Shown here in pieces: positions 11,081 to 61,902 of a stretch of 64,000 nucleotides of DNA. The stretch is from Candidatus Woesebacteria bacterium RBG_13_46_13 (lineage in GTDB: Bacteria > Patescibacteriota > Microgenomatia > UBA8517), in the NCBI GenBank assembly GCA_001791995.1, contig MGFR01000005.1, positions 26,895 through 90,894 of the forward strand. The letters run 5' to 3'. A model generated the notes under the pieces. It made no database searches, had not been told where the DNA came from, and was given only the letters and a program-made list of their open reading frames with translations. Position 1 is the stretch's first letter, and each line of letters begins with the position of its first letter. The translations under genes and the position numbers were made by a program.

Positions 11081-11083
11081 TTT

Positions 11084-13886: not shown

Positions 13887-13991
13887 CGAATAATATACCT
13901 CTTACAATGCTATAGAATACTAAATTATCCAGGCTATAACAAATAAGGCCCTGCGTAGACAAAATAGGAAGCCAGTGATAACATCTTCGTT
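13887..13991. promoter_or_regulatory. divergent intergenic region (105 bp) between the nucleotidyltransferase operon (-) and the GAPDH-like/CDP-alcohol phosphotransferase pair (+); probable bidirectional promoter
   Basis: One of only three non-coding gaps over 90 bp in the window. AT-rich with -10-like hexamers (tagaat, tacaat). Confidence 0.3.
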
Positions 13992-15038: not shown

Positions 15039-15042
15039 TCAT

Positions 15043-37036: not shown

Positions 37037-37082
37037 GGGATAATCTTTATCTTAACAAGTAGACCGAATCTAGTCCAATAAT

Positions 37083-39291: not shown

Positions 39292-39294
39292 TCT

Positions 39295-40047
39295 TTATTT
39301 CCTCGGAGCAAAATATTTACTTTTTTTAATTCCCCAAAGGTGAAGTAAGTAAACGGCAATAACCCAGTATGTCTCAAGCAAAAACTTCGCGCCTCTTAAG
39401 AATTTAATAGAGGAGGCTCTATCGTGATAGCGGGTTTCGATAGGGATCTCGCCTATCTTAAAACCATAGCTAATCGCGGCAACTTTCATCTGTTGGTCAA
39501 AAACAAAGTCGTTGGAAAATCTTTGAAAAGGAACGGTGAGCAAGAGCTTCTTCGAAAAAGCCCTGTAGCCGGAAAAATGTTCGCTGAAATTAACCCCCAA
39601 AAGGATATTCTCCAAAATTGTATCCAGTCTATTGAGGAAATATTTCAGCTTTGGCATGCCACCGGCCAATGCCCCACCGCGAGTCAGAATACGACTACCA
39701 AACATATAATCGCGCTTTCCCCTTAAGATCGGTTCTATCAAGTCTCCGATAACGGTTCCGTCATATTGATAATCGGGGTGAAGCATAACAACAACGTCGG
39801 GATTGAATTTTAATGCTTCCCAGTAACAGGTTTTTTGGTTTCCTCCGTAGCCGGTGTTGTTGGGGTGGGCATAAACCGTAATGCCCAACTTTTTTGCAAC
39901 CTCCACCGTATTATCACGGCTCTCATCGTCAACCAAAATCACGTGTTTTCTGTACTTCGGTTCAATTTCCTCCAAAGTATCCTTAACGGTCCGGGCTGCA
40001 TTGTAGGCAGGCATCACTACTACCACTGTGGGGTTTTTCTTGCTCAT
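39295..40047 (-). CDS. GT2 polyprenyl-phosphate sugar synthase (DPM1/Ppm1/GtrB-like)
   Basis: VVVVMPAYNAARTVKDTLEEI...ILVDDESRDNTVEVA...VVVMLHPDYQYDG...YMFGSR. Confidence 0.75.
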   Translation of the reverse strand: MSKKNPTVVVVMPAYNAARTVKDTLEEIEPKYRKHVILVDDESRDNTVEVAKKLGITVYAHPNNTGYGGNQKTCYWEALKFNPDVVVMLHPDYQYDGTVIGDLIEPILRGKRDYMFGSRILTRGGALAGGMPKLKYFLNRLDTILENILLGVNFSEHFSGYRAFSKKLLLTVPFQRFSNDFVFDQQMKVAAISYGFKIGEIPIETRYHDRASSIKFLRGAKFLLETYWVIAVYLLHLWGIKKSKYFAPRK

Positions 40048-46605: not shown

Positions 46606-47206
46606 TTTTGCCTTTTCCAAACACTATATAGCCAAACCCCAGAGAGATTATCCCGAAATAAAACAAGGCAAAAGTTCTGTCTTCCCAGAACCTCATGTTC
46701 AAGTTCGTATAGATATCCCTTATAAGAATGAGTGCCGATAGAGGTTTATAATAGGTTACCGAAGCAGCTGTATCGGAGTCTCTGGATAGATAGACCTCCA
46801 ACGCTTCTTCTTTCCTGCTCGAGGGGGAGGTTAACATTAGATCATATTTTCTCCCTTTCGAGTCTGTGATGGGTTCGAACATAAATCTTACAAACCCCCC
46901 ATCCGGGATGTTCCACCCACTTAGCGTTATCGTTCTTGCCAACTGCCCATTCTCGTTGATAATCTTCAGGATAATTTCCTCTTTGTTTTGAAGATTAGGA
47001 TTCTTAAAACTAAAGCCTATCCCGTTGAAGTTGTTGTAGGGTACCGTTACTTTATCCTCTATGGCTACGTTTTCATAGAATTTTTTGGTAACACCAAGCG
47101 GGGGTTGATCCTCTACCGGCAAATAACGAATCCCGAATGACAACAACGCCGGTAAGGTAAAAAGGGTCAATACAAAAAGGAAAAGGGCAATTTTAGGTTT
47201 GTTCAT
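46598..47206 (-). CDS. small membrane-anchored protein with extracytoplasmic domain
   Basis: 202 aa with N-terminal signal-anchor and C-terminal TM helix. 8-nt convergent overlap with 44617..46605. Confidence 0.35.
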   Translation of the reverse strand: MNKPKIALFLFVLTLFTLPALLSFGIRYLPVEDQPPLGVTKKFYENVAIEDKVTVPYNNFNGIGFSFKNPNLQNKEEIILKIINENGQLARTITLSGWNIPDGGFVRFMFEPITDSKGRKYDLMLTSPSSRKEEALEVYLSRDSDTAASVTYYKPLSALILIRDIYTNLNMRFWEDRTFALFYFGIISLGFGYIVFGKGKTI

Positions 47207-48398
47207 TTTTATATCCTTTTAGCAATTTCCAAATTAGGCCAAGAGAACACCCCACAAAAATACTGTGAATCAAACCTTGAATAAGATAGGGGTCTCCCAA
47301 TCTTTGAACTATCGCAAAAGGAGCGGGAATTAGGCCAAACCATCTACTAATAGGGGTTAAGAGTGACACACTCATGAATTTGTCGTTATAAAGAAAAGGA
47401 ACCGCAAACGCAGAAACGGAGGCTAAAACAAGAAGCCAGGAATATCTGTTTTCCTCTGCCCAAAGAATTACGAAGGACGGCATAATCCAGAGTAGCCATT
47501 GGATATGGAAATGGATAAAGGGAATTACAATGAGCAAAGCCGACAAATAATATTTCCAAAGGGCAGTTTTGGGACGGAACCAGGAAAACAGATACAAACC
47601 CACAAGAGCAACGGGAACGACCAGAATCTTCTCTCCACCGGAGATGCTAATCCCCGCCTCCAATATCCGTGTAGTCAGTCCCGAGGCAAATGAAGACGCC
47701 ACAAATGCCGGAGACCAAAAAGGAAGGATAATCACGGCCAAAGTCGCCAAAAATACCAAAGAGGCGGTTATCCTTTCTGACCATTTTTCCATCTTGGCCA
47801 GGAGAAACGGAAAGAAAAGAACTGGATACGCCTTAAATCCTACGGCCAGCCCCATGAGGACAGAGGCACCCAGCGGCTTGTTCTTTTTCATTGCCAAAAG
47901 AGAGGCAAGAACCAGAAAGACCGGAATGATATCTACGTTGGAAAAGAAATAGAGAAGAATCAGGGTAAAGGGGTTGAAAAGCCAAATGGTAAAAACCTTC
48001 TTTTTGTCTTCCTGTTTTTCGAAAAACCCCATCAATAGGTAGGCTATCGCAATATCCAAAACCAAGTAAGGAAGTTTCAGGACAAAAAGATAGCGGAATA
48101 TCCCGGGGGATTCTACTCCCCGACCGGTCGCATCGGAAAGCCAGGCCGTAAAATTCTCTCCAAGCAGGGGAGAGACTAAGGCCTGATATCCTCCCAGGAA
48201 AAAATAAGTTAAAGGGAAATAGACAAACTCTTCCTTGAGGGGAAGCTTCTCCCTATTGTCTATCAGGTAAGGATAGATATTGACCACTCCCTGCCTTAGA
48301 AACGAGGCCTGGAAATGGTAGGTCTTAATATCCGGATGAAAGAAAAACGGCATGATCAGAAGCCTGAGAAGGATTGCCAGAACCAAGAGTTTTTTCAT
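47193..48398 (-). CDS. polytopic membrane protein, DUF2029/GT87-like (putative mannosyltransferase); paralog of 50335..51594
   Basis: 401 aa, about 11 TM. FVLKLPYLVLDIAIAYLL is shared with LKLPYFAFDIAVAYLL in the paralog. Confidence 0.4.
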   Translation of the reverse strand: MKKLLVLAILLRLLIMPFFFHPDIKTYHFQASFLRQGVVNIYPYLIDNREKLPLKEEFVYFPLTYFFLGGYQALVSPLLGENFTAWLSDATGRGVESPGIFRYLFVLKLPYLVLDIAIAYLLMGFFEKQEDKKKVFTIWLFNPFTLILLYFFSNVDIIPVFLVLASLLAMKKNKPLGASVLMGLAVGFKAYPVLFFPFLLAKMEKWSERITASLVFLATLAVIILPFWSPAFVASSFASGLTTRILEAGISISGGEKILVVPVALVGLYLFSWFRPKTALWKYYLSALLIVIPFIHFHIQWLLWIMPSFVILWAEENRYSWLLVLASVSAFAVPFLYNDKFMSVSLLTPISRWFGLIPAPFAIVQRLGDPYLIQGLIHSIFVGCSLGLIWKLLKGYKNEQT

Positions 48399-50338
48399 TG
48401 TCTGACTTTAAATATCTCCGCTTCAGAATTTGAAAATATTTTTTCTACCCCCAAGAGGCCCTCGTTAAGGTTTAATTTGTAAAGAGTGGGTAAATAAATA
48501 TAGCTAATTTTATTTTCCAAAAGGAAAGCCTTATCCCAACCATAGTCTTTCCCGTAAAAGAATTTATTCGAATCCGCCAGTCTTCCTTTGTAATCGTTCT
48601 GAAATATCTCCTGCTGAAACTCATCCTCGACAAATGTTTCTTTTTTGGAAAACGCCGAAACGTAGGCGCTGGTTTCATAAACCGCCAGTGGGAAAGGTGA
48701 AGAATATTTGCTCCTTAGGTCCTTATTAAACGGATGTGTCAGAACCACTCCGTCCAGCTGGATCCCAAGAAAGCTCAGGGCTGCCGCTTCATCAGGGGTA
48801 ACTCTGGCCGGGGCTCCCTGAAAAGCACTCCTGAAAGTCGAGAGGGAGCTTAAGGGTGTTGCCAAAAACACGAGAGCCACCGCCAAAATGGCCAGATATT
48901 TAGGCAGGCTCTTGGCCAAAACAACAAGACCAAGCCCGGCAAAGACGGCGCAGAAATACAAGAAGTAATAGATAAACTGAATAGTGTTCCAGGGGTTTCC
49001 TTTTTGAATGAATAATAGGGTCGGGATAAAAGAAGAAGCGGATAAAAATGCAATGAAAAGCAAGGTTGGACTTTTCCAAAACTTCTTTTTGAAAAGCCCG
49101 GGAAGCCCCACAAGCGCAACCACTCTCGTTCCCAAATTCCCTACCACAAATATCGCCAATGCCAATATTTCGGCCAATACATACTTTGGCCAGAGGCCCA
49201 CCGAAAGATAACTAGCCCTCGCTTGCGACAGTCTAACCCAGCCGACCCTATCCGCAAAATCGACCATCGAGTCCACTAGCCAAAACGGTGAGAAGACGAT
49301 AAGTCCCGCGGAAGCGGAGTTGTTGGGAAGAAAAACCAACAGAGCCAAGATAAGCGCCGGAACAAAAACTTTTAAGTAAGCAAAATCCTTCTTAACCGCA
49401 CGAACCAAAGCGATGGCTCCCAGGGAAAAAAGGGCAACTGCCCCCGCGTAAACCTTAAATTCGATAAGGGTGCCGGAAACCAGTATCAACGCCAATCCCG
49501 ACGCCAGATTTCTTTTTTCCTCGAAAATCTGAAACAAGATAACCAGTGCCACCAAAAGAACCAAAGAAACCGCAAAAGGGGGGTTGAGGTTCATCGAAAC
49601 CGGTTGGTTTGCCCAAAATGCCGACTCCCCTCCCCAAAACCCACCCTTTATCCATTCGAGAATATAGCCGAAGCTCCCGCCGAAATAGACAAAAAACAAA
49701 GAAGCTGCCCCGACGTACCATTTATTAAACAGGGCCTTACAAAGCAGGTAAGTTCCAAGCCCCAACAGGAATGAAAAGAGTATCGGATAAAACCTGAAGA
49801 TTAAATCCGCCACCGGAACCCCGGACATGTGGGCAGTTGTGGCCACCAGGAGGTCATAAAAGTAGTGGTAGTTGGACAGCGTCGTTCCCGAAAGCCCCGG
49901 GTTTCCCGGTGGAGTTGCCTTAATAAGTTGATTAACCAGAGCCTGGTGCCAAACCCCGTCGTGTCCCAACGGTCCCCAATAGCCGATTCCGAAATCATAA
50001 ACAGTTCCCGACTTAAACGTCAGTGCGTTTTGAAAAATTATCCCGCCTAGAATAATTACGGCGATTATTAGGGTGGCCGGATTAACTTTCTGTCTGAAAT
50101 TCTTTAATTCGTTTAGGTCAAGTCCCCGGATATAAAAATAAGAAGATGCCGCGGCGAGCGCCAGCACCAGATAAATATTTACAAACGCGGCAAGGGTGGT
50201 AATTACTATTCCCAAGGACAGCGCCAAGAAAATAGCCAAGGCCCCGTTTAGTTTTAACCTGTTTACCAAAACGCTGCCCGTAACAAAGATAGCAAAAAAA
50301 AGAAAAATGGAGAATTTAAGTATTTCTAGGATAATCAT
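48395..50338 (-). CDS. large polytopic membrane protein (paralog of 44617..46605)
   Basis: 647 aa; motifs as above. Confidence 0.5.
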   Translation of the reverse strand: MIILEILKFSIFLFFAIFVTGSVLVNRLKLNGALAIFLALSLGIVITTLAAFVNIYLVLALAAASSYFYIRGLDLNELKNFRQKVNPATLIIAVIILGGIIFQNALTFKSGTVYDFGIGYWGPLGHDGVWHQALVNQLIKATPPGNPGLSGTTLSNYHYFYDLLVATTAHMSGVPVADLIFRFYPILFSFLLGLGTYLLCKALFNKWYVGAASLFFVYFGGSFGYILEWIKGGFWGGESAFWANQPVSMNLNPPFAVSLVLLVALVILFQIFEEKRNLASGLALILVSGTLIEFKVYAGAVALFSLGAIALVRAVKKDFAYLKVFVPALILALLVFLPNNSASAGLIVFSPFWLVDSMVDFADRVGWVRLSQARASYLSVGLWPKYVLAEILALAIFVVGNLGTRVVALVGLPGLFKKKFWKSPTLLFIAFLSASSFIPTLLFIQKGNPWNTIQFIYYFLYFCAVFAGLGLVVLAKSLPKYLAILAVALVFLATPLSSLSTFRSAFQGAPARVTPDEAAALSFLGIQLDGVVLTHPFNKDLRSKYSSPFPLAVYETSAYVSAFSKKETFVEDEFQQEIFQNDYKGRLADSNKFFYGKDYGWDKAFLLENKISYIYLPTLYKLNLNEGLLGVEKIFSNSEAEIFKVRQ

Positions 50339-51594
50339 TCCTTAGCCTCTTGGCTTTTGGGGAAAAGAATATATAAATAGTAAAAAGCAACTCCAACAAA
50401 AAGACTCTGGAAGATACTGCGCATCTGGTTTATATCCGGACTAACCCCAACAAGCTGCCAAATTCCGGGAAGTCCATAAAGCTTGGGCCAGATGGGAGCA
50501 AATAACCAAACCGAAAGACCCGGATCAAAAAAGCTCACCAGGAAAACAAAACTCACCAGGGAAAGGGCAACCATTACCCAATGTTTCAGATGTTTTACCA
50601 AATCGATAATCATAAACGGGGTTAGCCAGAGAAACCACTGGGGGTGGTAATGGGTAAAGATAAAGAAAATCAGCATCATGATAAAAAATCTCTTCCACAA
50701 AAGCTCAACCGTTGAGGTCTTGAAAAGAAACACCAGGTAGAAAAAAATGACAAAAACCAGAAATAACATAATCGACTCTCCTCCCGAAAGAGGAATTTGG
50801 GCATAAAGGCTTTTGGTCGTCTGGCCTGCCAAAAGAGCGGTTGTTCTAAATCCTTTTGAGGCAATGAAAGGCAGAATGGTGGCTATATAAGCCAAAACGC
50901 CTACGGTGACAATCTTGATCCTTTCCAACCAACTTTTCTTTAAAGATGCCAAAGGAACAAGAAAAAGCAGAGGAAAGATTTTAAAGGCTCCGCCAAGACC
51001 CAAAAGCAAAGCCTCCAATAGCAAACTCTTTTGGCCTACGTCTTTCTTTTTAACAACCAAGTAAAGACACAAAACCGAGAAGAAAACAGGGATAATATCA
51101 AACTGCCCCACCATGTAGGTAGCGTAGAGATTTACGGGATTAAATATCCAAAACGAGAATCCCAAGAGTTTCTCCCTATCCGTCTTAAATAAGGCCATCA
51201 GAAGATAGGCAACTGCGATATCGAAAGCAAAATAAGGAAGCTTTAATAACAGAAGCAGCAGGTTTAACTGCCAATTGCCCAGGGTCGAGCTGAAATTAAG
51301 AATAAAGTTGGCATGGACCGCCGGATCAACTATCCAGCTAACTACTCTAGTGGCGGGTCCCAGAAAAAAGTAAACGGCCGGGGGGTAGTTAAATAAGTTT
51401 TTGGGGTAAACGGCTAGGATAGGACTATCCTGGGGAAGATTCCACAAGTAATCATAGAAGTTTGCGATATTCCCTTTGGCAATTATTCCACCCGCAAAAT
51501 CAAATGGTGCAACATCCGAATGATAGGTGGCCAAGGATAGGATAATCCGCAGAACTATCCCTATCAGCAGAATCTTGATTATTTTACTTTTCAT
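50335..51594 (-). CDS. polytopic membrane protein, DUF2029/GT87-like paralog
   Basis: 419 aa; motifs shared with 47193..48398. Confidence 0.4.
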   Translation of the reverse strand: MKSKIIKILLIGIVLRIILSLATYHSDVAPFDFAGGIIAKGNIANFYDYLWNLPQDSPILAVYPKNLFNYPPAVYFFLGPATRVVSWIVDPAVHANFILNFSSTLGNWQLNLLLLLLKLPYFAFDIAVAYLLMALFKTDREKLLGFSFWIFNPVNLYATYMVGQFDIIPVFFSVLCLYLVVKKKDVGQKSLLLEALLLGLGGAFKIFPLLFLVPLASLKKSWLERIKIVTVGVLAYIATILPFIASKGFRTTALLAGQTTKSLYAQIPLSGGESIMLFLVFVIFFYLVFLFKTSTVELLWKRFFIMMLIFFIFTHYHPQWFLWLTPFMIIDLVKHLKHWVMVALSLVSFVFLVSFFDPGLSVWLFAPIWPKLYGLPGIWQLVGVSPDINQMRSIFQSLFVGVAFYYLYILFPKSQEAKE

Positions 51595-53257
51595 TTTTTC
51601 TTTTAATTACCAGAAACATTGCAGTTGTAATCGCTCCCAAAGAAACAAAATTAGTTACTTTCCTCAACGGAGCCTCGCGATACTCAACGACCACCTCATG
51701 GGTCCCTCCCGGCACCTTCAGGGATATTTGCCCGTATGGTACGCCGCTTAAGATATCGGTGCCAACTCCATCTATTTTAGCAACCCACCCTGGGAAATTG
51801 TATTTGTTGTAGGAAAGAATAAATTCCTCCGGGTAGTTAGTCACAATTCTCGCATCCAGTGGGTTAATTTCTTCAATTATCAGGTTGGCCCTAACGTTCG
51901 AGTAGGCGCGGGGGTAAACCATGGAAGGCCTGACCAGATTGTCTTTGGGCAAACGCAAATACTCCTCAGATGTCCGGCGATATTCGGCACTTGCCGCGGG
52001 ATATGGAATATACCTGTCGACATAATACTCGTCGGCCCTGCCCAAAAACTTTTCCGGTTTGAAGTAAAGAAAGTTCAGGGCAATTGCGGCTACAATAATT
52101 ACCCCAGCCACAATCCTGGCGTGTTTAAATTTGGAAAATCCAATCAAAAATAAAGGAGAAGAAAACACTATCATTGTCAGAAAGCGCCAGGGAAACTGAA
52201 AATATGGCAAAAGGGGGATAGATTTCCAGAGAATATCCGAGCGGTGGTTCATCATAAAGATGCTTAGTACAAAGATGCCGATAGCCCAAATCAGAACTGT
52301 CTTTTCCTTTACCCCAAAGCCCTTCCAGCTCTTTATAGCCAAGGCTCCTCCCACTACAACTGTCAACAAGCCTATGATGCCGATATAAAAAGACATGCCG
52401 TCATATGGCCCTGGAACGGATGCGCCGTAGCCGAAATAGGGGGTAATAAGCTGCTTAAGTGTGGCGAAGTGGTCAAAATAGTTATAAACGGTCGAATATT
52501 TAACTAACCCGCTCTCATAAATGGCCGGAAACCAAAAATACGCGGATGCCAAAAGTCCCAAAATAATTGCCCAAAAAGACCTGAGCAAATAGGTGATTTT
52601 ATCCTGCTTGGCAGAGATGATAAGCACCACAAGTAGGATAAGGGCAAAGGGAAAAAACATATAAGCCAAAATATTGTGCGACAATACAAGAGCGGCAATT
52701 GAAAGTGCCGAAATTCCTATCCATTTTATCCCCGAATCTTTTTGGGTCAGCCGGATAAAAGAAAGGGCAACCAAAGGAATAAAAACAAAGGCTACTATCT
52801 CCCCTATCGCTCCCCTAACAAAAATTTCGGTTGCCCGGTAAGGAGCGTAAACATAAAGTACGGCTCCAGCCAGACTTAGGGGCTTATCAACCAATTCCCT
52901 GAGGAGTTTGTACATGAAGTACATCGAGAAAGGAATGCTTAAACCAAAAACAAGTTTGGCTGCATCCACCAAAGAAAAACCAAAAAGGTGGAAGATCTCT
53001 CCGATATAAAAGGGCAAGGGATAAACGAAATTAAACAAGGGATAGCCGAATCCGAAACTTAAGTCGGGAACAAACCTGGGAGGAATCTGAAACATTTTCA
53101 CTGCCCTGTCCATCTCATAAAGCCAACCTATCAGGGTGTCATCCGACACGCCGAAAAATCCGGGCACTACAAGCGTCCAAACGGCCGGGAGCGACAGGGC
53201 CAGTACAACAAGAAAGATATGTTTAGCGAAAAATCTTTTTACTTTTTCCATAGACAA
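51584..53257 (-). CDS. GT-C-like polytopic membrane protein with C-terminal 'PGW-x-VDG' beta-domain (YfhO/PTPS-related-like)
   Basis: N-terminal loop VPGFFGVSDDTLIGWLYEMDR...FQIPPRFVPD; C-terminal FPGWVAKIDGVGTD. Paralogous to the next two genes. Confidence 0.45.
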   Translation of the reverse strand: MSMEKVKRFFAKHIFLVVLALSLPAVWTLVVPGFFGVSDDTLIGWLYEMDRAVKMFQIPPRFVPDLSFGFGYPLFNFVYPLPFYIGEIFHLFGFSLVDAAKLVFGLSIPFSMYFMYKLLRELVDKPLSLAGAVLYVYAPYRATEIFVRGAIGEIVAFVFIPLVALSFIRLTQKDSGIKWIGISALSIAALVLSHNILAYMFFPFALILLVVLIISAKQDKITYLLRSFWAIILGLLASAYFWFPAIYESGLVKYSTVYNYFDHFATLKQLITPYFGYGASVPGPYDGMSFYIGIIGLLTVVVGGALAIKSWKGFGVKEKTVLIWAIGIFVLSIFMMNHRSDILWKSIPLLPYFQFPWRFLTMIVFSSPLFLIGFSKFKHARIVAGVIIVAAIALNFLYFKPEKFLGRADEYYVDRYIPYPAASAEYRRTSEEYLRLPKDNLVRPSMVYPRAYSNVRANLIIEEINPLDARIVTNYPEEFILSYNKYNFPGWVAKIDGVGTDILSGVPYGQISLKVPGGTHEVVVEYREAPLRKVTNFVSLGAITTAMFLVIKRKNEK

Positions 53258-54956
53258 GAGCAGTTAGAAACAACAGCGCCGAAACCAAAGATACCGCATT
53301 GGCCACGGCCCTTATCGGAGTATTTGTAAAATTTCCTGCTACTGTGTGGCTACCCCTTTCCAAATTAACCGCTATCCGTCCCAGAAGGTTCTGGTGATAA
53401 ACCGCTTCCTCTTTGCCGTCCACCTGCACCTTCCAGCCGGGAAAGTAAAAAACGGAAAGCTCGATCTGGGAAGTCCTGGCAACCTCGGCTTTAAAGCTAA
53501 ATCCGTTTGATTTATTGATAAAATCCTTAACGCTGGCCATTCCGCTGACAACAAAAGGTGCTACTGGGGCTTTTTCTTTCGGTTCTGAAGCGGTTCTGGG
53601 CAGATAGTCCAAGATTGCCCCCTTCTGCTGTTCTTCCCAAGCCGCCCCGGTTAATTTTTGGTTATCGGAAAGCCCGTAATAAAAATCCCGGGGTGCAAAA
53701 TATTCCCAGTTTAGGACAAACGCCAAAACAATTATTAAAACCGAAGCCGTAAGTTTCCATCTTTCCCCCAGGGCAGATACGGCAAATCCCGCCAGGAGCG
53801 ATGCCGAAAATATGCTCAAGGATAAAAATCTCCAAGGGAACTGAAAGAACTTGAGGATAGAGATCCGTTCCCAGATAAACGCCGACTTATTATGTGTCAT
53901 GAATATCGAAAAAGTAAAAAGGCCTAAAAGTATTAGCGCTAAAAGCTTGTGTTCCCTTTTTACTTTTTTAAGGAAAAGTACAGCGGCTGCCGCAAGCACA
54001 GTCCACCATAAAGGCCAGCCGATTTGGAAGGAGATTGTATCCCCCGTTCCCAAGATCGAAGCCCCGTAGCCCCAGGTTCTATCCAAAAATAATTGCTTTA
54101 TTGAAACAAAGTGTGCCCTGAAGTCCAATTCAAACCTGGTTAAGGCCTCCGTCTGAACCAAGGATTTCTCCAAGAAAGCGGGCAGGATAAAAAATGCAGC
54201 AAGTCCGAAACCCAGTACCGTCGCAACAATGACCCCTTTAAGGTTATTGAATTTTTCCTGCCAAAGCCAAAATATTACGAATATTGCCAATACGGGGGTA
54301 AAGAGAATAGTCATAATATTGTGCGTAATCAAAAATGCGGCCAGGAAAAGTGTGGCCAGGACAAACGAGGATTTGCTGCGCTCTTTGATGAATTTATAGA
54401 AGAACAGCAAGACAAAGGGCACCAAACTCATGGCAAAAAGCTCGGCTACCGCTCCCCTGACATAGGCATCCAAGGCCCTATAAGGGGCCAGTAGATATAA
54501 AGAACCAGCAACTAAAGCAGGATTTACCCCGAATAACTTTTTGACCAGAAAATAGATCCCGAGTCCCCCGCCCAAAAGCGAAACAAGAAATAAGAATTTG
54601 GCGGAAGCGATGTAGCCCGCCACAAAACTAACCAGTGCTCCGAGATAATAAGGCAGAACACCGTAGAAATTAAAAAGCGGAAATCCGTTGCCGTAACCCA
54701 TATCCGGTACCCAACGGCAGGGAATCTGAAAATCGGTAAGGCAGCGCCGCATCTCGAAAATTCTGATTACCTGCAAATCGTCATGGTGGGGAAAATAACC
54801 CCGAACAAAAAGTGGCCAACAGATAGAAATTCCCAAAACCAGCAAAAGCACTATCTGCCAGTTTTTTTTGAGAAGATTAAAGACCTTCATTTTCTTCTGA
54901 GCCAGACCGCAACTACGAATCCGACGGTAACCAGGGAGATGATATCCCCTACCCAT
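53223..54956 (-). CDS. GT-C-like membrane protein, same family (paralog)
   Basis: YFPHHDDLQVIRIFEMRRCLTDFQIPCRWVPDMGYGNGFPLF; C-terminal YFPGWKVQVDGKE. Confidence 0.45.
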   Translation of the reverse strand: MGRGYHLPGYRRIRSCGLAQKKMKVFNLLKKNWQIVLLLVLGISICWPLFVRGYFPHHDDLQVIRIFEMRRCLTDFQIPCRWVPDMGYGNGFPLFNFYGVLPYYLGALVSFVAGYIASAKFLFLVSLLGGGLGIYFLVKKLFGVNPALVAGSLYLLAPYRALDAYVRGAVAELFAMSLVPFVLLFFYKFIKERSKSSFVLATLFLAAFLITHNIMTILFTPVLAIFVIFWLWQEKFNNLKGVIVATVLGFGLAAFFILPAFLEKSLVQTEALTRFELDFRAHFVSIKQLFLDRTWGYGASILGTGDTISFQIGWPLWWTVLAAAAVLFLKKVKREHKLLALILLGLFTFSIFMTHNKSAFIWERISILKFFQFPWRFLSLSIFSASLLAGFAVSALGERWKLTASVLIIVLAFVLNWEYFAPRDFYYGLSDNQKLTGAAWEEQQKGAILDYLPRTASEPKEKAPVAPFVVSGMASVKDFINKSNGFSFKAEVARTSQIELSVFYFPGWKVQVDGKEEAVYHQNLLGRIAVNLERGSHTVAGNFTNTPIRAVANAVSLVSALLFLTALVYGKSKKIFR

Positions 54957-57316
54957 CTCGCCGGAGTTCGTCCTAGCTTAACTTCAATTTTATGCATTCC
55001 CGGGGCAATATTAAAGCTCACGAGCCCCAAACAGTACTCTTGGCCCCTGCAATCGTTATTAACGTGGGCTACGACTTTTCCGTCAACCATGACCTTCATC
55101 CCGGGAAAATCGAAGATGGGGAGCCTAATTAACGCCTCTTTCGTAACCGTAACTTCTCCTGTTTGAAAATTGGATCCCTTTTCGTAACTAATAAAGTTGG
55201 CCTCCCCCTCCAAAACCTCCGGGATATCAGATGCTTTTGACGGTGGAGGAAGTTTGGCATATATCGGCAGATAGTCGAAAATGCTAATCGTCAGCTGTTT
55301 TTCCCAAGAGGCACCCGAGAATTTATCCGTATCGGTTATATTCAACCAAGCTTTGGGAACAAAGAAATTCGCATACAGGATAAAGGCTGCAATAACTGCT
55401 GCGATCCCCAACAGGTAGCGAAACTTCCCCGCGAAATAGACAGCCAATCCGGAAAGAATTGCCAACAAGAATATGCTGATCGACAAAAACCGCCAAGGAA
55501 ACTGCAACCAATGAAGAAAAGGCAGCTTTTCCCAGATAAAACTGGATTTAAGGTGCATCATAAAAAGGACCAGAAGTTCCGAGCCAACAAAGACAAAAGT
55601 CAGAGTGGCCAGTTTTCTCTCCTTCTTAAATCTGAATGCGGCAAGAACTCCCGCCAGGATTCCGATAAGCCATTGGACTATTCCGGTTGAAAGATTTAAT
55701 TTTTCGGCAGGAAAACCCGAAGAGCCGTAGCCCCACTCCATCGAGAGAAAAAGCTTGTAGACATTTACAAAATGGGCCCGGTAATCAAAATACCCGGAAA
55801 GAAGCGATTCCAAGTGTGCATACTTTCGCTCCAAGAGAAGAGGAATCAAGTAAAAAGCCGACAAACCAAGTCCCAAAAGCCCCGCCAGGATAATTTTTCC
55901 AACCACCTTCCACTTTTTCTCGGTATATATCCAATAACCTATCCAGACAAGCAGAAACGGAGCAAAAATCATCGAAATCAAGCTGTGTGTGGTCAAAAGC
56001 AGAAGAATCGAAATTGCGGTCCAGATTATATATCTTGTTTTTGCCTTTGTAGTGAGCCGGTAGGTCGCCCAAAATGCCAAGGGAAGAAACGCCAAAGACC
56101 AAAATTCATTTAAGGCTCCTCTGACAAAAACCTCAACGGCTTTATAAGGAACATAGGAATAGATGAGGGCCGCAACTACCCCCGGCCAATTCCCCAAGAA
56201 GGACTTAACCAGAACAAACATCGCCAGAGCCGAGGCAATATAGCCCAAAACGAAAAGAACCTTGACCGCGTCGATATATTGAAGTCCGATGCGGTGCAGA
56301 AGAGCCCCTACGTAGTAAACGGACGGCGGATAATAAATGAATTGGGGATATCCGTATTGATAGCCGGCATCCGGCACCCAGCGGCAGGGAATTTGGAAAT
56401 CGTCAAAGCATTTGTCCATCTGCTGGACCCTAAAGGCCTGCAAATCATCCTGCATCGGGAAAAAGCCGGGTCGGACAAGTCTAAAAAAGGTCGGGACAAT
56501 AAGGGCGGTGATTAAAAGAGCCAGCAGCAAGTTTCTGTTAAGCTTCTGCCCCAACCACATAATGGCTGTTATAATGAAGTGTTTTAACCTCCCGTGGTAA
56601 ATCTTGCTTGAAGGAATAAGCCGCCTCCACTGATTAGTATTCCCAGCTATCCCCTTTCCGCTTTCCCCGTGGTAATGGATAATTTCTGCCCGGGGCAGAT
56701 AGTAAGTTTTCAATCCGGCCCTTTTTACCTGCCTGCAATAATCCAAATCCTCAAAATACATAAAGTACCGGGAATCCAACTTCCCTACTTTTTTAAGGGC
56801 CTGTGGAGTAATTAAAAATGCAGCGCCGACTATGGCGTCTACTTTAGTGGGGCTTATCCCGACCGGAGCAAATTTATCGTAATGGCCTTCCTCGCCGAAC
56901 CAGTATTGCTTGAGTGCCCCGGCTATCCCCGGAAAATTGAAACACGAGGCCTGGACAGAGCCATCCTTATTTAACAGTTTTGCCCCAACCACTCCCGCAT
57001 CCGGGGTATCTTTGGCAAACTCCACGAGTTTATCGATGGCGCCCTTTCTAACCAGCGTATCCGAATTTAAAAGAAGGATATATGTTCCTTTTGATGCCTC
57101 AATCCCTTGATTGACTGCTTTGGCAAAGCCTAAATTCTCCTTGTTTATTATTAAGCGAAAATCCGCTGCCGGTAAGGTAAATCCGTCTTGGCTGCTATTT
57201 TCGACTACTATAATTTCGAAAGGAATGCTTGTATTTTTCTTAACGGAGGCGATGCAGTCCTCTACCAGTTTTCTGGTATTATAGTTGACTATTATTACCG
57301 AGATTGTGGGCTTCAC
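54887..57316 (-). CDS. fusion protein: N-terminal GT2 glycosyltransferase + C-terminal GT-C-like membrane domain of the 'PGW-x-VDG' family
   Basis: N-terminal MKPTISVIIVNYNTRKLVEDCIASV...IIVVENSSQDG...LLLNSDTLV (GT2). Then FFPMQDDLQAFRVQQMDKCFDDFQIPCRWVPDAGYQYGYPQF... and C-terminal FDFPGMKVMVDGK. 809 aa. Confidence 0.7.
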   Translation of the reverse strand: MKPTISVIIVNYNTRKLVEDCIASVKKNTSIPFEIIVVENSSQDGFTLPAADFRLIINKENLGFAKAVNQGIEASKGTYILLLNSDTLVRKGAIDKLVEFAKDTPDAGVVGAKLLNKDGSVQASCFNFPGIAGALKQYWFGEEGHYDKFAPVGISPTKVDAIVGAAFLITPQALKKVGKLDSRYFMYFEDLDYCRQVKRAGLKTYYLPRAEIIHYHGESGKGIAGNTNQWRRLIPSSKIYHGRLKHFIITAIMWLGQKLNRNLLLALLITALIVPTFFRLVRPGFFPMQDDLQAFRVQQMDKCFDDFQIPCRWVPDAGYQYGYPQFIYYPPSVYYVGALLHRIGLQYIDAVKVLFVLGYIASALAMFVLVKSFLGNWPGVVAALIYSYVPYKAVEVFVRGALNEFWSLAFLPLAFWATYRLTTKAKTRYIIWTAISILLLLTTHSLISMIFAPFLLVWIGYWIYTEKKWKVVGKIILAGLLGLGLSAFYLIPLLLERKYAHLESLLSGYFDYRAHFVNVYKLFLSMEWGYGSSGFPAEKLNLSTGIVQWLIGILAGVLAAFRFKKERKLATLTFVFVGSELLVLFMMHLKSSFIWEKLPFLHWLQFPWRFLSISIFLLAILSGLAVYFAGKFRYLLGIAAVIAAFILYANFFVPKAWLNITDTDKFSGASWEKQLTISIFDYLPIYAKLPPPSKASDIPEVLEGEANFISYEKGSNFQTGEVTVTKEALIRLPIFDFPGMKVMVDGKVVAHVNNDCRGQEYCLGLVSFNIAPGMHKIEVKLGRTPARWVGDIISLVTVGFVVAVWLRRK

Positions 57317-58212
57317 GTCGCGAATCTAGAAAATATTGCTTCGTCGGAAACTTGCGCCTCTTTCCTCTCTTTTCTTCTGGCTTTGACCACGGTGCCTAAT
57401 TTTAAAAGGGCCGAAAGAACAATTCTGGTGTAACCGGGGTGTCTTGCCATTCTCGAAAAAAGTGCGCTGAGGTGTTTCCTGAAAAGATTCTGGCTGGTGA
57501 TATTTTTCCAGATAAATAAAAGTTCGTTACGCTGTCTTATTCTTTGGGTATACGACTTATTCAGTGTCGATATCGTAGATTCATGATGGTGTTCAACCAA
57601 GGCAGCCGGCTCCCAAATCACCTTATAACCCCGTTTATAGGCCCGGTAAGAAAGGTCGATGTCTTCCCAATAAAAAGGCGAGAACAATTTCTCATCCATC
57701 CCGCCGAGAGCCAACCAGGTTTTCCTCCTGAAAACCGCGCTTCCTCCGCTGGCCCATAAAGACAAATGGGAACTGCCGGTCACCGGACCCGGAGAATGAT
57801 GCAAAAATCCTTGCTTGAAATCCCCTTTTGCCCAAGAATAGTCTTTTTCTTTGAAGGATACGGCAAATACACGCTCGTCCTCAAAATGTTTCAGGGCTTC
57901 TTGTAGGAATTCCCTAGAGGGGGCTACGTCGGTATTGATAAGCGCAACCAAGCTACCTTTGGCCATTCTGACCCCGGTATTTACTGCAGCTGAAAATCCC
58001 CTATTAACCTTATGTGTAATTATTTTTAGGGAAGGAAATCTTTCTTTTAAACCCGCAGCCTTCTCAACCGGCGAGCCGTCATCAACAACAATTATTTCGG
58101 AGATTGCGTTGGACTCAACCTCCTTGGCCTCAATTACTTTGGGTAAATTGGCCAACAGCAGTCCCTTGGTATTGTAGTAGGGAATAATTATTGAAACCGA
58201 TAAGTCTTTCAT
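57313..58212 (-). CDS. GT2-family glycosyltransferase
   Basis: VSIIIPYYNTKGLLLANLPKV...IIVVDDGSP...ALINTDV. Confidence 0.8.
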   Translation of the reverse strand: MKDLSVSIIIPYYNTKGLLLANLPKVIEAKEVESNAISEIIVVDDGSPVEKAAGLKERFPSLKIITHKVNRGFSAAVNTGVRMAKGSLVALINTDVAPSREFLQEALKHFEDERVFAVSFKEKDYSWAKGDFKQGFLHHSPGPVTGSSHLSLWASGGSAVFRRKTWLALGGMDEKLFSPFYWEDIDLSYRAYKRGYKVIWEPAALVEHHHESTISTLNKSYTQRIRQRNELLFIWKNITSQNLFRKHLSALFSRMARHPGYTRIVLSALLKLGTVVKARRKERKEAQVSDEAIFSRFAT

Positions 58213-58304
58213 TTTCTTACCCTGACCACATGCAACATTCCCAAATTAAATTTCTTGTCTACCTCCATGCCTATTTTAAACGAATGGGAGCCTGTAAGGA
58301 AGAG

Positions 58305-59330
58305 CTATAACAACGCAGACAGTTTTTCTGCGAAAACGTCGTAGCTATATTTCTTGCTGTCCAGCCTGGCCTCCCTGCCCAATTTTACCAAAAGACCTTT
58401 CGTTTCGATAAGAGTCCTGGTGTTTTTGAGAAGCTCCTGTGTACTTGCCCATAAAAATCCGTTTTCCCCCTCTCTGACAATTTCCTTATAACCTCCCCCC
58501 CTATAAACAAGCGGGGCTGCGCCTGCCGCCATTGCCTCAACTGCGGAGATACCAAAGTGCTCAAACTTTTCAGGTTCTTTTTCCTCCTTTGCCCCAAAGC
58601 CAACCGCCGACCAGAATATCTTTGCCCTCCCGTAGAGAGTGCAAATCTCTTTAAATGTCGGACTTTCAACAATCTCTATGGGGTAGCCGGAAGATATTTT
58701 TTTTATATTCTCCAAATACTCTTTTCCCCCTATCTCAGCGCCCCCGGCCAAAATAAGTTTCCACTCGGAGTATCCCGAGTCGTAAAGTCTTTTGAAGGCT
58801 TTTATTAAAACATCCTGGTTTTTGGCCTGTGTCAGCTGGGAAAATCTGCCCACGAAGGTAATAATATCCTCTTTAATCTTTGGTCTGATTTTCTCTATCG
58901 CTACAGGTGGATAGATGACAGCCGAATCTACCCCGTATTCCGCATCGATGAAACTCTTGGTAAAGCGGGAGTTACAGATAACCTTGGAAATCCTCCAAAG
59001 CTTCATTTTATTAAGCAGGGTTACGCCTTTTACGCCGTGGAAGGGAACCTGAAAGTGGAGAAGGTTTTTCCTGGCCTTCAGAGCCGGAATGGACCCGTCG
59101 GACACCCAAAAACAAAGATCGTACCCGTCTCCCCGGGCGATATCTTTAACAAAATTGATATCCGTCAGTTTAATTCCAAATCTATCCTCCAGCTTATTCT
59201 TGACTGAAGGGCTCCTCCACTGCACATCTACTTTATAGCCCTTATTTTGCAGAACAGTGGCAACGGCTAGGCTGTAGCGCTCTCCGCCTCCTAGGGTATC
59301 AAGATATGGATTATATATTGCGGCTCTCAT
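58305..59330 (-). CDS. GT4-family glycosyltransferase
   Basis: FEHFGISAVEAMAAGAAPLVYRGGG (EX7E). Confidence 0.75.
   Translation of the reverse strand: MRAAIYNPYLDTLGGGERYSLAVATVLQNKGYKVDVQWRSPSVKNKLEDRFGIKLTDINFVKDIARGDGYDLCFWVSDGSIPALKARKNLLHFQVPFHGVKGVTLLNKMKLWRISKVICNSRFTKSFIDAEYGVDSAVIYPPVAIEKIRPKIKEDIITFVGRFSQLTQAKNQDVLIKAFKRLYDSGYSEWKLILAGGAEIGGKEYLENIKKISSGYPIEIVESPTFKEICTLYGRAKIFWSAVGFGAKEEKEPEKFEHFGISAVEAMAAGAAPLVYRGGGYKEIVREGENGFLWASTQELLKNTRTLIETKGLLVKLGREARLDSKKYSYDVFAEKLSALL
58313..58331 (-). terminator. possible weak intrinsic terminator hairpin overlapping the last codons of the GT4 gene
   Basis: Minus-strand CGCAGA-aaaactg-TCTGCG (6-bp stem, 7-nt loop) followed by TTGTTATAG, then a 92-bp non-coding gap. 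Confidence 0.2.
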
Positions 59331-60135
59331 TCTTTTGCATCTCCCAAAGCTTTGCGTATGTTATCATGCGGGAAAACGTCTGGTAAATTATTTCGATCAC
59401 CCCCACCGCTCCGTCCAGAAATCCCAGTTTTAAAATCGCCCGATACCGAAATTCCCTGGCCGCAACGGAAATAAACCTCCACCAGACCATCTTGGGATGC
59501 CCTGATTCAAAAAGCAGTTTGGCTTCAATAGCCGACCATTCATTCGTTTTGGCAACCATCTCGGATAAACTCCTGTGGGAGATATGCGTAAGCGGATTTT
59601 TAAGCTTGCCCACTTCTCCTTTAATTGCCGGTTGTTCATGAAGCTCGCCTTTCCAACCCAAAAGGGCATCTTTTTTTATCAGTCTTAAAACATAGTCGGG
59701 CCACCAGCCCCCCCAACGCATGGGGTGACCCAAAAGAATATTCTTTCTGGGAATTGCGTAAGCATTATATTTCAGTTGATGATTGGTGATTAGGGATTGA
59801 ATTTCTTTTCGCAGTGCGGGGGTAACTCTCTCGTCGACATCGACATAGAGAAGCCAATCTCCACCGGCAACCTTTGCACCCAGATTTCTCCTGTCGGCAA
59901 AACTACCCTTAAGAGACTTAACGATTTTGGCACCTTTGCCTTTCGCAATTTCAACGGTTTTATCCGTACAGCCGTTATCGACAACAATTATCTCATCGAC
60001 CCAGGTAAGGGAAGCCAGGCAATCTCCAATCAGGGCTTCTTCGTTTTTAACCAAAATTACTGCCGAGGTTTTCATTTCCAGCTTCCTTTTTCCAGGCGGC
60101 CGAGGTAATAATCCCTGATGCCAGCCCTCTGCCAC
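59311..60135 (-). CDS. GT2-family glycosyltransferase (WaaE/KdtX-like subgroup paralog)
   Basis: TSAVILVKNEEALIGDCLASLTWVDEIIVVDNGCTDKTVEIA...LYVDVDERV. Confidence 0.75.
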   Translation of the reverse strand: MAEGWHQGLLPRPPGKRKLEMKTSAVILVKNEEALIGDCLASLTWVDEIIVVDNGCTDKTVEIAKGKGAKIVKSLKGSFADRRNLGAKVAGGDWLLYVDVDERVTPALRKEIQSLITNHQLKYNAYAIPRKNILLGHPMRWGGWWPDYVLRLIKKDALLGWKGELHEQPAIKGEVGKLKNPLTHISHRSLSEMVAKTNEWSAIEAKLLFESGHPKMVWWRFISVAAREFRYRAILKLGFLDGAVGVIEIIYQTFSRMITYAKLWEMQKNESRNI

Positions 60136-60995
60136 TTCCTGCCGCTGATAATGAGCCGCAGGCTTTCTCTAATTAAGGCCAGCTTGGTTCTTAGGGGAGC
60201 AAACTTAAATCCGAAGAGTAGTCTGTTGCGGGTGATAAAGTAGTCGTTGAGGTCCCCGCCAACCTTCGAGCTTTGGGAAACTTTGTGCCAGATCTGGGTT
60301 CTAGGGGTATAAACAATTTTAATTCCGGCCCTCTTTGCCCTTTCTGAGAGTTCGACATCCTCCAAATAGGCAAAATATTTGGGATTGAAAAGCCCCACTT
60401 TTTCAAAAACCCTCTTTTTGACAAACATACAGGCGCCGGTAGCAAAATCCGTCTCTTTTTCTTCATCGTATTGGCCACGATCAACATCATCAACCCCGTT
60501 ATTGGTTGCATATAGATTGCCCCAGTCGATATTCCCCCCTGCGGACCAGATAACCTTCCCGAGGACATACTTGGGGTATCTGTCTTTATGAAATTCAAAT
60601 CCCGGAGCAAAATAGATCTTCGGCACAAAGATCCCCGCATCCTTGTTTGCCCGCGCGGATTTTATAAGCTCGACAACCAAACTCCTGTCAACCAGAGTAT
60701 CGTTATTCAGAATCAGGACATAGTTGGCCCCTGTCGCCAGGGCCTCCTTTATCCCGACGTTGTTCCCTTCGGCAAAACCCAAATTTTCGGAATTCTTGAC
60801 AACCATGAAGGGAATATTCGTAATTTTGTTTAAGGCTTCGATGGAGCCGTCGCTTGAGGCATTATCGACCACAATTATACTTAGCTCATAACCCACTGTG
60901 GCTATCCGGCTTAAAGACTTGAGGCACTCAATCATGTCATCTTTTCTGTTCCAGTTAAGAACCACTATCGTTACTTTGGGAATTGTTTTACTCAT
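60072..60995 (-). CDS. GT2-family glycosyltransferase (WbbL/rhamnosyltransferase-like architecture)
   Basis: VTIVVLNWNRKDDMIECLKSL...IIVVDNASSDGS...LILNNDTLV. Confidence 0.75.
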   Translation of the reverse strand: MSKTIPKVTIVVLNWNRKDDMIECLKSLSRIATVGYELSIIVVDNASSDGSIEALNKITNIPFMVVKNSENLGFAEGNNVGIKEALATGANYVLILNNDTLVDRSLVVELIKSARANKDAGIFVPKIYFAPGFEFHKDRYPKYVLGKVIWSAGGNIDWGNLYATNNGVDDVDRGQYDEEKETDFATGACMFVKKRVFEKVGLFNPKYFAYLEDVELSERAKRAGIKIVYTPRTQIWHKVSQSSKVGGDLNDYFITRNRLLFGFKFAPLRTKLALIRESLRLIISGRKWQRAGIRDYYLGRLEKGSWK

Positions 60996-61902
60996 TGCCT
61001 AAAAAGATACGCCGATAAACCCGCTTGGGAAGCGAAGCAATAAAACTTCCCGACTTAATTAAGACCTCGATAATCCACCAGTTAATCTCCTTATTGGCTC
61101 TTTTTACCTCGGCTGCGAACTGCTGGGTAGAAACGGCCTGTGGGGTAAATTGTTCCGCCTGCCAAAGCTTAAGATAAAGGGCCAGTTCGGAAAAGGCCTG
61201 TAGGCAGGCCAAGGCCAATCCGTGCAGGCCGTCCTTATAGCCTTCTCCGGCAAAATAACGGCTCAAAAATTCCGCCAAAGGGCGCCTTATTACATCGTGC
61301 CAAACAAATTTGTATTCCTTCTGGACTAGCGCCCGCGCCTGAACATCGGTGTAGCGGTTCATCCTTTCGATAAATTTCGCAATCGAGGTGTAATTGTAAT
61401 GGGTAATTGCGTATTTCTCCTCAGCTGGAAGGTCAAGTCCTTTACCGATGGTCATCGGCACCGAATGGATAATCTCGTTCCAGGTAACGCTGCCTTTTTT
61501 GAAAAACCTGATATTGTAATCCGGCCACCAACGGGAGTTTTTAATCCAACGTTTGAAATTAATGTTTCTTCTCGGTAAGCGGTAATAGTCGGCCTGGGGA
61601 CTTTTGACAATCTGCTTAAGCTTTACCGCCAGGCTTTGGGGTATCTCCTCATCAGCATCCAAGACAAGCACCCAGTCTTTGGAGGCCTTATCGATGGCAA
61701 AATTTCTGGCCGGCTCAACGTATCCGACCTTTTCGTGATGAAAAACCTGGGCGCCGTAATCTTTGGCAATTGCCACGGTTTTATCCGTGGACTCCATATC
61801 CACAACCACTATCTCATCGGCAATATCCTTGACGGACTCCAAGGCCCGGGCGATATTTTCCTCCTCGTTGAGCGTATTGACAACAACCGAGATTGATCCC
61901 AC
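60988..61902 (-). CDS. GT2-family glycosyltransferase (WaaE/KdtX-like subgroup paralog)
   Basis: ISVVVNTLNEEENIARALESVKDIADEIVVVDMESTDKTVAIA...VLDADEEI. Confidence 0.75.
   Translation of the reverse strand: MGSISVVVNTLNEEENIARALESVKDIADEIVVVDMESTDKTVAIAKDYGAQVFHHEKVGYVEPARNFAIDKASKDWVLVLDADEEIPQSLAVKLKQIVKSPQADYYRLPRRNINFKRWIKNSRWWPDYNIRFFKKGSVTWNEIIHSVPMTIGKGLDLPAEEKYAITHYNYTSIAKFIERMNRYTDVQARALVQKEYKFVWHDVIRRPLAEFLSRYFAGEGYKDGLHGLALACLQAFSELALYLKLWQAEQFTPQAVSTQQFAAEVKRANKEINWWIIEVLIKSGSFIASLPKRVYRRIFLGNE

Follow-up and report, generated by a model that had tools for sequence, protein, structure and literature searches.

The closest described counterparts of the locus analysed here are the multi-component transmembrane glycosylation systems known from Firmicutes, namely CsbB/GtcA/YfhO (B. 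subtilis, S. aureus) and GacI/GacJ/GacK/GacL (S. pyogenes), in which a gene for a GT-A glycosyltransferase (GT) lies beside one for a polytopic GT-C enzyme and a flippase is encoded nearby (PMC8035078). In the lactococcal Wps pathway (WpsA/B, WpsC-F, the flippase WpsG, WpsH and WpsJ), cytosolic GTs elongate an oligosaccharide on C55 polyprenyl phosphate (C55-P), a Wzx-type flippase translocates it, and polymerisation and transfer are carried out by two GT-C enzymes, WpsH and WpsJ (PMC10821137). We compared these systems with a 64,000-nucleotide stretch of the Candidatus Woesebacteria bacterium RBG_13_46_13 genome (GenBank assembly GCA_001791995.1, contig MGFR01000005.1, positions 26,895 to 90,894; hereafter the window, at its full length). 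This stretch carries three consecutive genes, A, B and C, for paralogous membrane proteins, the last of which is fused to an N-terminal GT2 domain.

The locus shares with the CsbB and Gac systems a GT-A gene beside a polytopic GT-C, a flippase encoded with the system (a predicted Wzx-like protein at 61922..63409, Wzx being also the type found with GacK), a YfhO-related family of the GT-C clan and an extracytoplasmic accessory domain, as proposed for YfhO (PMC8035078). It differs from them in that the GT-A is covalently fused to the GT-C in some lineages and resembles rhamnosyl/galactofuranosyl (Galf) transferases, not C55-P-sugar synthases, in that three or four GT-C paralogs stand in fixed order instead of one, and in its host, a member of the candidate phyla radiation (CPR). 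With Wps (PMC10821137) it shares a single operon that brings together several cytosolic GTs, a Wzx-type flippase and multiple GT-C enzymes; unlike Wps, no WpsA/WpsB-like initiator was identified in the window's operon, the GT-C family is PTPS_related, and one of the cytosolic GTs forms a single protein with a GT-C. By analogy, Wps appears to provide the nearest described logic for this operon. What distinguishes the locus, within known GT-C extracytoplasmic glycosylation, is a conserved, ordered PTPS_related trio together with a recurrent, unstable fusion to an elongating-type GT2. A literature search on PF10131, GT2/GT-C fusions and Patescibacteria GT-C enzymes found no description of this fusion or of the paralog trio.

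All three open reading frames (ORFs) lie on the minus strand (A 51584..53257; B 53223..54956, 577 aa as called; C 54887..57316). The start of B is most likely 54890 (M23, 555 aa) and not 54956, because an ATGA stop/start overlap joins it to C (54890..54887) and a 94%-identical ortholog was called at 555 aa. The GTG start of C overlaps the stop of an upstream 299-aa GT2 gene as GTGA, and the two junction overlaps therefore suggest that these genes are translationally coupled. For comparison, 80 loci were collected from a scan of GTDB species representatives and analysed by ORF-level BLAST, with up to 10 kb of upstream sequence per locus. The genes and their parts are as follows (TM, transmembrane helix; AF2, AlphaFold2 model).

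51584..53257, minus strand: gene A, likewise a PTPS_related GT-C paralog, 557 aa from TTG (exact start uncertain); Pfam PF10131 30.2 bits; A-type orthologs in 54 loci.
53223..54890, minus strand: gene B, a GT-C paralog of the PTPS_related family, 555 aa when started at 54890; PF10131 58.8 bits; B-type orthologs in 62 loci.
54887..57316, minus strand: gene C, 809 aa, GT2 domain plus membrane module; Pfam PF00535, PF13641 and PF10131 (the last at 31.5 bits).
56642..57316, minus strand: GT2C, the GT2 catalytic domain of C, residues 1-225 (Pfam, NCBIfam, Foldseek).
56537..56641, minus strand: two linker helices of C, residues 226-260 (NQWRRLIPSSKIYHG...WLGQKL), predicted to connect GT2C straight to TM1 (AF2).
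55220..56536, minus strand: predicted GT-C transmembrane core of C, residues 261-699, TM1-TM11 (AF2, Foldseek, topology).
56444..56449, minus strand: DD motif of C (D290, D291), first extracytoplasmic loop, candidate catalytic acid(s).
54974..55219, minus strand: predicted extracytoplasmic beta-sandwich of C, residues 700-781, with FPGMKVMVDGK (AF2 strands, motif conservation).
54893..54964, minus strand: predicted last TM helix of C, residues 785-808, and RRK tail, bringing the C-terminus back into the cytoplasm (AF2 helix; hydropathy, K/R distribution).

The membrane modules of A, B and C could be aligned end to end with ~95 invariant columns, and pairwise BLAST (C-B 35%, E 1e-103; A-B 31%, E 5e-70; A-C 30%, E 4e-59) identified them as full-length paralogs, in agreement with the three-gene array proposed in the initial annotation, which had been made from the sequence alone. 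The shared motifs it had pointed out were also found, within the invariant columns: an N-terminal loop motif (A GFFGVSDD...FQIPPRFVPD, B GYFPHHDDL...FQIPCRWVPD, C GFFPMQDDL...FQIPCRWVPD) and a C-terminal FPGW-type motif (A FPGWVAKIDG, B FPGWKVQVDGK, C FPGMKVMVDGK), the latter in a beta-domain that the AF2 model of C resolves into strands at residues 700-713, 717-735, 740-744, 765-770 and 773-781. The suggested resemblance to PTPS and YfhO proteins stood for the first family and was marginal for the second. All three proteins exceeded the Pfam gathering threshold (26.4 bits) of PF10131, the PTPS_related family of GT-C clan CL0111, with alignments that spanned profile positions 1 to ~310 of 621 alone, the C-terminal halves diverging from the family model. 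PTPS_related has been assigned to the GT-C clan previously (PMC7801869). PF09586 (YfhO, gathering threshold 28.5 bits) matched only B, at 29.4 bits and without any individually significant stretch, and did not match A or C, although precomputed PF09586 matches were present on some orthologs. A PDB sequence-profile search with the membrane module returned no solved relative, and the database labels of these proteins read just 'glycosyltransferase' or 'PTPS-related protein'.

In C, residues 3-228 form the GT2 domain (PF00535 86.8 bits, PF13641 68.6 bits), and its fusion to the membrane module is, judging from sequence comparison, genuine and conserved. The contrary explanation, a missed stop, a frameshift or a chimeric assembly, draws on the observation that the same parts are separate, abutting genes in seven related loci, in different frames in six of them, so that a single indel could interconvert the two states. 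However, the ORF of C has no interruption, and a protein from an independent ENA assembly (P0001, ERZ27248148) was 94% identical over all 809 residues. The gene for this same protein, in locus L082, had the length of the window's C gene (2430 nt), zero indels and 91.1% nucleotide identity, and the codon differences were predominantly synonymous both over the whole gene (131 synonymous, 52 non-synonymous; 2.5:1) and over junction codons 201-300 (21 and 7, respectively). A further ~60 clusters (90% identity clustering; JGI, ENA, NCBI and Logan) were fused at 50-62% identity and 97-100% query coverage, and linker residues W230, L233, S237, Y240 and G242 were invariant in 47 fused orthologs. On this evidence an artefact is highly improbable, and conservation of the fusion in related genomes, which the initial annotation had raised as a question, was observed. 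Its description of the architecture as uncommon is a relative one: the fusion recurs in the ~60 clusters, four of the 50%-identity representatives were full-length fused proteins (at 59, 47, 40 and 34% identity), and 7 of the 80 species-level loci were fused.

The order C-type, B-type, A-type was kept in nearly all 80 loci, some of which contained a fourth paralog. GT2C itself occurred in four states: it was fused to the C-type module in 7 loci, encoded by a separate abutting gene in 7, located 0.4-7.6 kb upstream in 10, and not found in the upstream sequence of 56, where at least 5 kb (up to 10 kb) was available for 46 and less than 5 kb (contig edge) for 10. The abutting GT2C genes encode 271-287 aa and overlap the C-type start out of frame by 22-49 nt in six of seven cases, the other (L062) having a 3-nt in-frame gap. 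The end of stand-alone GT2C proteins (...WxGQKWxK*) coincides exactly with the point at which TM1 starts in the fused protein, and in stand-alone C-type proteins TM1 is preceded by a short N-terminal tail. When the C-type modules were placed on a neighbour-joining tree, linkage to GT2C was limited to one crown clade, inside which the fused state was mixed with abutting, nearby and not-found states at at least five positions. This scattered distribution indicates repeated fusion and fission, that is, a probably unstable GT2C-C fusion that has been gained and split several times. P0061, at 75% identity the nearest ortholog of the window's module that lacks the fusion, belongs to an operon that is fully syntenic but without GT2C. 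Variation between fused and split forms, depending on the species, is also known for mycobacterial Ppm1, whose GT2 domain, a polyprenyl-phosphate-mannose synthase, is joined to a polytopic membrane part; that membrane part is not a GT-C, the GT2 is a true Pren-P-sugar synthase and the domain order is different from that of C. All informatively titled loci came from Microgenomates-type CPR metagenome-assembled genomes (MAGs; Woesebacteria, Daviesbacteria, Shapirobacteria), with the exception of L073, titled Clostridia. Loci L003, L004 and L005 and many third-party-annotation (TPA) MAG records are titled 'uncultured Gammaproteobacteria bacterium' despite a typical Microgenomates operon, and these titles seem to be placeholder or erroneous labels.

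Fusions other than GT2C-C were also encountered. P0060 (1387 aa) combines GT2C and two GT-C modules in a single chain, L019 encodes a B-type and an A-type module in one ORF (13359..16643, 1094 aa), and P0128, P0144, P0180 and P0165 are tandem forms of 1060-3329 aa with two matched stretches, P0165 having several GT-C-type Pfam matches. These tandem fusions suggest that the paralogs may work as one complex. In P0134 (821 aa, from the search of representatives and outside the window) a membrane module 41% identical to that of C carries an N-terminal GT2 of a different class (NCBIfam PgfS 72, ArnC 60, AglJ 58 and Dol-P-hexose transferase 45 bits), and this protein is best read as a separate fusion event that joined a GT2 of donor-synthase type to a member of this GT-C family.

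The AF2 model of full-length C had a predicted local distance difference test score (pLDDT) of 83.5 and a predicted template modelling score (pTM) of 0.84, with linker helices 226-241 and 243-258 at pLDDT 88-94. Foldseek on this model gave GT2-domain matches alone, hence the membrane module was modelled separately (pLDDT 83.2, pTM 0.87). The best 26 PDB matches of the membrane-only model were all GT-C enzymes (E 1.8e-4 to 6e-2, probability 0.77-1.0, TM-score 0.25-0.44), among them AglB (E 1.8e-4), STT3, PglB (TM-score 0.43), AftA, ALG12, Pmt4, EmbC and ArnT, with AftD and DPY19 further down. The models therefore support a GT-C fold for the membrane module, without a close solved relative, and the similarity to GT-C folds on which the initial annotation depended was recovered. 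Helices and hydropathy together predict 12 TM helices with both termini inside, so that the D290/D291 loop after TM1 and the beta-sandwich would face outwards, and the short K/R-rich loops 466-470 and 561-567 and the RRK tail would face inwards. With the N-terminus inside, GT2C would be cytoplasmic and the fusion would require no extra TM helix. The predicted topology is thus coherent with a GT2 domain on the inner face and a transfer module on the outer face, as had been envisaged, and it would also permit concatenation of modules.

A conserved acidic motif in the first extracytoplasmic loop is a hallmark of GT-C active sites (PMC7801869), and D290/D291 occupy this position. D290 was 100% conserved in C-, B- and A-type and fourth-type paralogs (n = 80, 62, 54 and 26, respectively) and conservation of D291 was 91-98% among C-, B- and A-type proteins. 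Besides D290, the residues R312, D316, K352, R399, E404, H444, E496, W595 and QFPWR605-609 were ~100% conserved across all paralog types. Positions adjoining the DD motif were type-specific (C/B/A: 293 = Q/Q/H, 296 = R/R/W). Because the candidate catalytic and ligand residues are kept and positions 293 and 296 differ by type, C, B and A all look like active enzymes with distinct specificities. Paralogous GT-C proteins encoded or acting together are found in yeast Pmt1-Pmt2 and mycobacterial EmbA-EmbB, both represented among the fold matches; here a complex is suggested by gene order and rare tandem fusions, and the Foldseek alignments to these proteins have ~8-13% identity. Two other roles for the membrane module were considered and set aside. 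A mere anchor or activator for the GT2, like GacJ or WpsB, does not fit the intact DD and QFPWR motifs in many genomes with no GT2C found nearby. A processive synthase, with a cellulose-synthase-like GT2 and a channel, is not favoured because the acidic loop and the accessory domain are predicted to be extracytoplasmic and the module is mostly unfused.

GT2C has the attributes of an inverting GT2 enzyme of GT-A fold: the PF00535 match, a DxD-type motif and an acidic residue in the C-terminal half. In the 47 fused orthologs D86 (in LLNSDT), E189 and H214 were invariant and D190 and D192 were conserved in at least 90%, and these are putative catalytic residues. The top NCBIfam matches were TuaG, the rhamnosyltransferase TIGR01556, PgaC and MftF; PpgS, Dol-P-hexose transferase, ArnC and PgfS were absent from the NCBIfam matches of GT2C, and AglJ reached 16.9 bits only. 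P0134 served as a positive control, as the same scan readily picked out its synthase class, and strong matches were likewise obtained for two GT2 genes elsewhere in the window.

27243..27902, minus strand: candidate polyprenyl-phosphate-sugar synthase, 219-aa GT2; NCBIfam PpgS 117.9, AglJ 97.5 and Dol-P-hexose transferase 57.9 bits; possible donor supplier.
39295..40047, minus strand: second candidate polyprenyl-phosphate-sugar synthase, 250-aa GT2; AglJ 76.5, PpgS 51.7 and Dol-P-hexose transferase 45.3 bits.

An all-against-all BLAST of the window's GT2s placed GT2C nearest to the rhamnosyl/GlfT1-like GT2 at 60072..60995 (105 bits over 256 aa), with which it has the motif (I/L)LN(S/N)DT in common. 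Its scores were lower against the upstream 299-aa GT2 (58 bits, 26% identity) and were 0 and 25 bits against the two synthase-like GT2s. The LLNSDT motif of GT2C also contrasts with the DADLQ typical of synthases of that class. The structural matches of GT2C included ppGalNAc-T2, T. gondii GalNAc-T3, WrtF and 6p61, of which ppGalNAc-T2 and WrtF were best; DPMS, GtrB and ArnC were not among the top 50, which were glycan- or peptide-acceptor GT-A enzymes. WrtF is an O-polysaccharide fucosyltransferase (PMC12595478). GT2C thereby has the appearance of an elongating, rhamnosyl/galactofuranosyl-transferase-like GT2 and does not look like a polyprenyl-phosphate-sugar synthase of the CsbB/GtrB/GacI/DPMS class expected of a partnered GT-A.

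This assignment bears directly on the mechanism put forward in the initial annotation, in which GT2C would make a polyprenyl-phosphate-monosaccharide inside that, once flipped, is used by the GT-C module of the same polypeptide, as in a fused CsbB/YfhO- or GacI/GacL-type system. The canonical GT-A/GT-C pairs csbB-yfhO, ykoT-ykoS and ykcC-ykcB (PMC8035078) lend this mechanism precedent, and GT2C ends in amphipathic or hydrophobic helices without a TM of its own, like GacI and WpsA, which need a membrane partner. Fused or translationally coupled GT2C/C junctions recur, and P0134 makes such coupling evolutionarily plausible within this GT-C family. However, family scan, BLAST and structural matches all place GT2C outside the synthase class in which P0134 is recognised, and no GT2C was found upstream in 46 of the 70 C-type loci for which 5 kb or more was available on that side, so that such a partner is missing from the upstream sequence examined for the majority of membrane-module orthologs. 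We therefore regard donor synthesis by GT2C as unlikely; the architecture imagined for C seems to occur in this GT-C family, in P0134, and not in the window's C.

The remaining operon genes provide the setting in which the trio and its fused GT2 would act.

61922..63409, minus strand: Wzx-type flippase (Polysacc_synt_3), PF13440 191 bits; operon head, position kept in L001 and L082.
58305..61902, minus strand: cytosolic GT block, with GT4 58305..59330 and GT2s 59311..60135, 60072..60995 and 60988..61902 (Pfam, NCBIfam); order the same in L001 and L082.
57313..58212, minus strand: 299-aa GT2 directly upstream of C, MftF-like 96 bits (Pfam, NCBIfam, BLAST).
47193..51594, minus strand: downstream polytopic proteins of 419 aa (50335..51594), 647 aa (48395..50338) and 401 aa (GT87/PIG-M-like GT-C) (Pfam); syntenic in L001 and L082.

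The operon order, Wzx, four GT2s and one GT4 (57313..61902), GT2C-C, B, A, 419-aa, 647-aa, GT87-like and 202-aa protein, is conserved in L001 and L082, and the ortholog of the 299-aa GT2 directly precedes that of GT2C in most loci having GT2C, marking it as a conserved partner gene. GT2C sits at the border between the cytosolic-GT block and the membrane GT-C block.

From the paralogy, GT-C fold, topology, active-site conservation, GT2 subclass and the real but unstable fusion we infer a donor type, order of action, acceptor and complex as follows. The cytosolic GT2 and GT4 enzymes, including GT2C, would assemble or lengthen a lipid-linked glycan at the inner face, and the Wzx protein would flip it. 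C, B and A would then extend, polymerise or attach the glycan to a cell-surface acceptor at the outer face, with a specificity differing per paralog, using polyprenyl-phosphate-linked sugars or oligosaccharides. Such a donor is compatible with the two synthase-like GT2 genes elsewhere in the locus, from which the donors may derive. The fusion would tether the last cytosolic GT to the membrane and to the first GT-C, probably to a C-B-A complex, and may have arisen from the position of the two genes, GT2C closing the cytosolic block and C opening the membrane block. We give this reading, outer-face transferases with a tethered elongating GT2, a probability of roughly 50%. Several points weigh against it: no initiating phosphoglycosyltransferase was found among the window proteins, the NCBIfam scores of GT2C are all far under equivalog cut-offs, a similarity-based assignment to a GT2 subfamily leaves the acceptor unfixed, and the close GT-A/GT-C adjacency resembles pairs of the csbB-yfhO type, which would favour synthesis of the donor by GT2C.

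The same genes can be read as an assembly machine, in which a C-B-A heteromer with docked GT2C adds the sugars of a glycan one after another on a lipid carrier and does not act on a finished polymer, much as ALG3/9/12/6/8/10 do in the luminal phase of eukaryotic N-glycan assembly; an obligate complex would then explain the fusions. This reading overlaps with that of outer-face transferases tethered to an elongating GT2. The strictly conserved order of C, B and A with overlapping junctions is in keeping with it, as are the natural fusions (B+A in L019, GT2C with two modules in P0060, and the tandems P0128, P0144 and P0180) and a 12-TM topology that allows concatenation. Active-site residues in all paralogs beside type-specific neighbouring positions, ALG12 among the fold matches and the at least 14 recognisable GT-C genes of the window point the same way. 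However, gene order and fusion denote functional linkage, from which neither a stable complex nor a lipid-linked acceptor need follow, and tandem fusions are rare relative to separate genes, so we rate a stepwise heteromer as a possibility of low likelihood. A bolder form would join GT2C, C, B, A and the conserved downstream polytopic proteins into a single physical assembly line for glycans that spans the membrane, which in this CPR organism would be a bacterial counterpart of the two-phase eukaryotic ALG pathway. In that form the last inner-face elongation would be coupled to successive outer-face GT-C steps, and the GT2C-C, GT2C-C-C' and B-A fusions would be snapshots of it. We consider this somewhat less likely still, and retain outer-face transfer with a tethered elongating GT2 as the preferred reading.

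For the PTPS_related/YfhO branch of GT-C enzymes no solved structure is known and biochemistry is very scarce, and Microgenomates envelope chemistry is uncharted. The locus offers a conserved trio of paralogs that all look active and in which clear candidates for catalytic residues and for specificity positions can be named, while natural 'Rosetta-stone' fusions (GT-A/GT-C and GT-C/GT-C) point to a physical coupling of inner- and outer-face glycosylation. P0134, with its donor-synthase-like GT2 on the same GT-C family, is the contrast case, and together with the trio and the fusions it supplies concrete constructs for heterologous expression and cryo-EM. For annotation, a GT2/GT-C fusion should not automatically be called 'donor synthase plus transferase'.

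Beyond this operon, the entire 64-kb window is one glycan megalocus, nearly all on the minus strand. It contains two Wzx-like flippases, ~12 GT2/GT4 genes, several unclassified polytopic proteins and sugar-modifying enzymes; no tRNA or Rfam features were found in it. The recognisable GT-C genes comprise nine PMT_2 genes at or above the gathering score, one PIG-V-like, one GT87-like, three PTPS_related and one weak PMT_2-like gene below threshold (33873..35387). In L082, an additional 801-aa YfhO-family gene (6695..9100) lies between the GT4 and the 299/313-aa GT2, and the window is without it; its presence in a 94%-identical locus points to rapid turnover of GT-C genes between close relatives. 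The 419-aa and 647-aa proteins and a plus-strand 662-aa protein (44617..46605) had no Pfam or NCBIfam match, and hhalign to the PTPS_related profile was not significant. With 9-12 hydrophobic segments, these three may be unrecognised GT-C-like enzymes.

Seven PMT_2-type GT-C genes (489-550 aa) occupy 32266..44592, in a run broken by the synthase-like GT2 at 39295..40047 and by 38671..39291, which encodes a protein of 206 aa with ~5 TM helices, no family match and a possible role as a small flippase or GT-A partner. Five multi-TM ORFs (322-545 aa) without family assignment lie among glycosyltransferase genes at 18310..23203 and 24644..26125, and 23185..24642 encodes a fusion of a GT2 with an S-adenosylmethionine (SAM) methyltransferase. 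A sub-cluster at 5953..15801 encodes a DegT-type aminotransferase, a 3-dehydroquinate-synthase-like enzyme, an SDR, a glyoxalase-fold protein and methyltransferases, as well as a DUF4147/MOFRL (glycerate-kinase-like) protein, a nucleotidyltransferase, a CDP-alcohol phosphatidyltransferase and GAPDH. This suggests synthesis of an unusual activated head group, which could be a cyclitol or an aminosugar-phosphate substituent.

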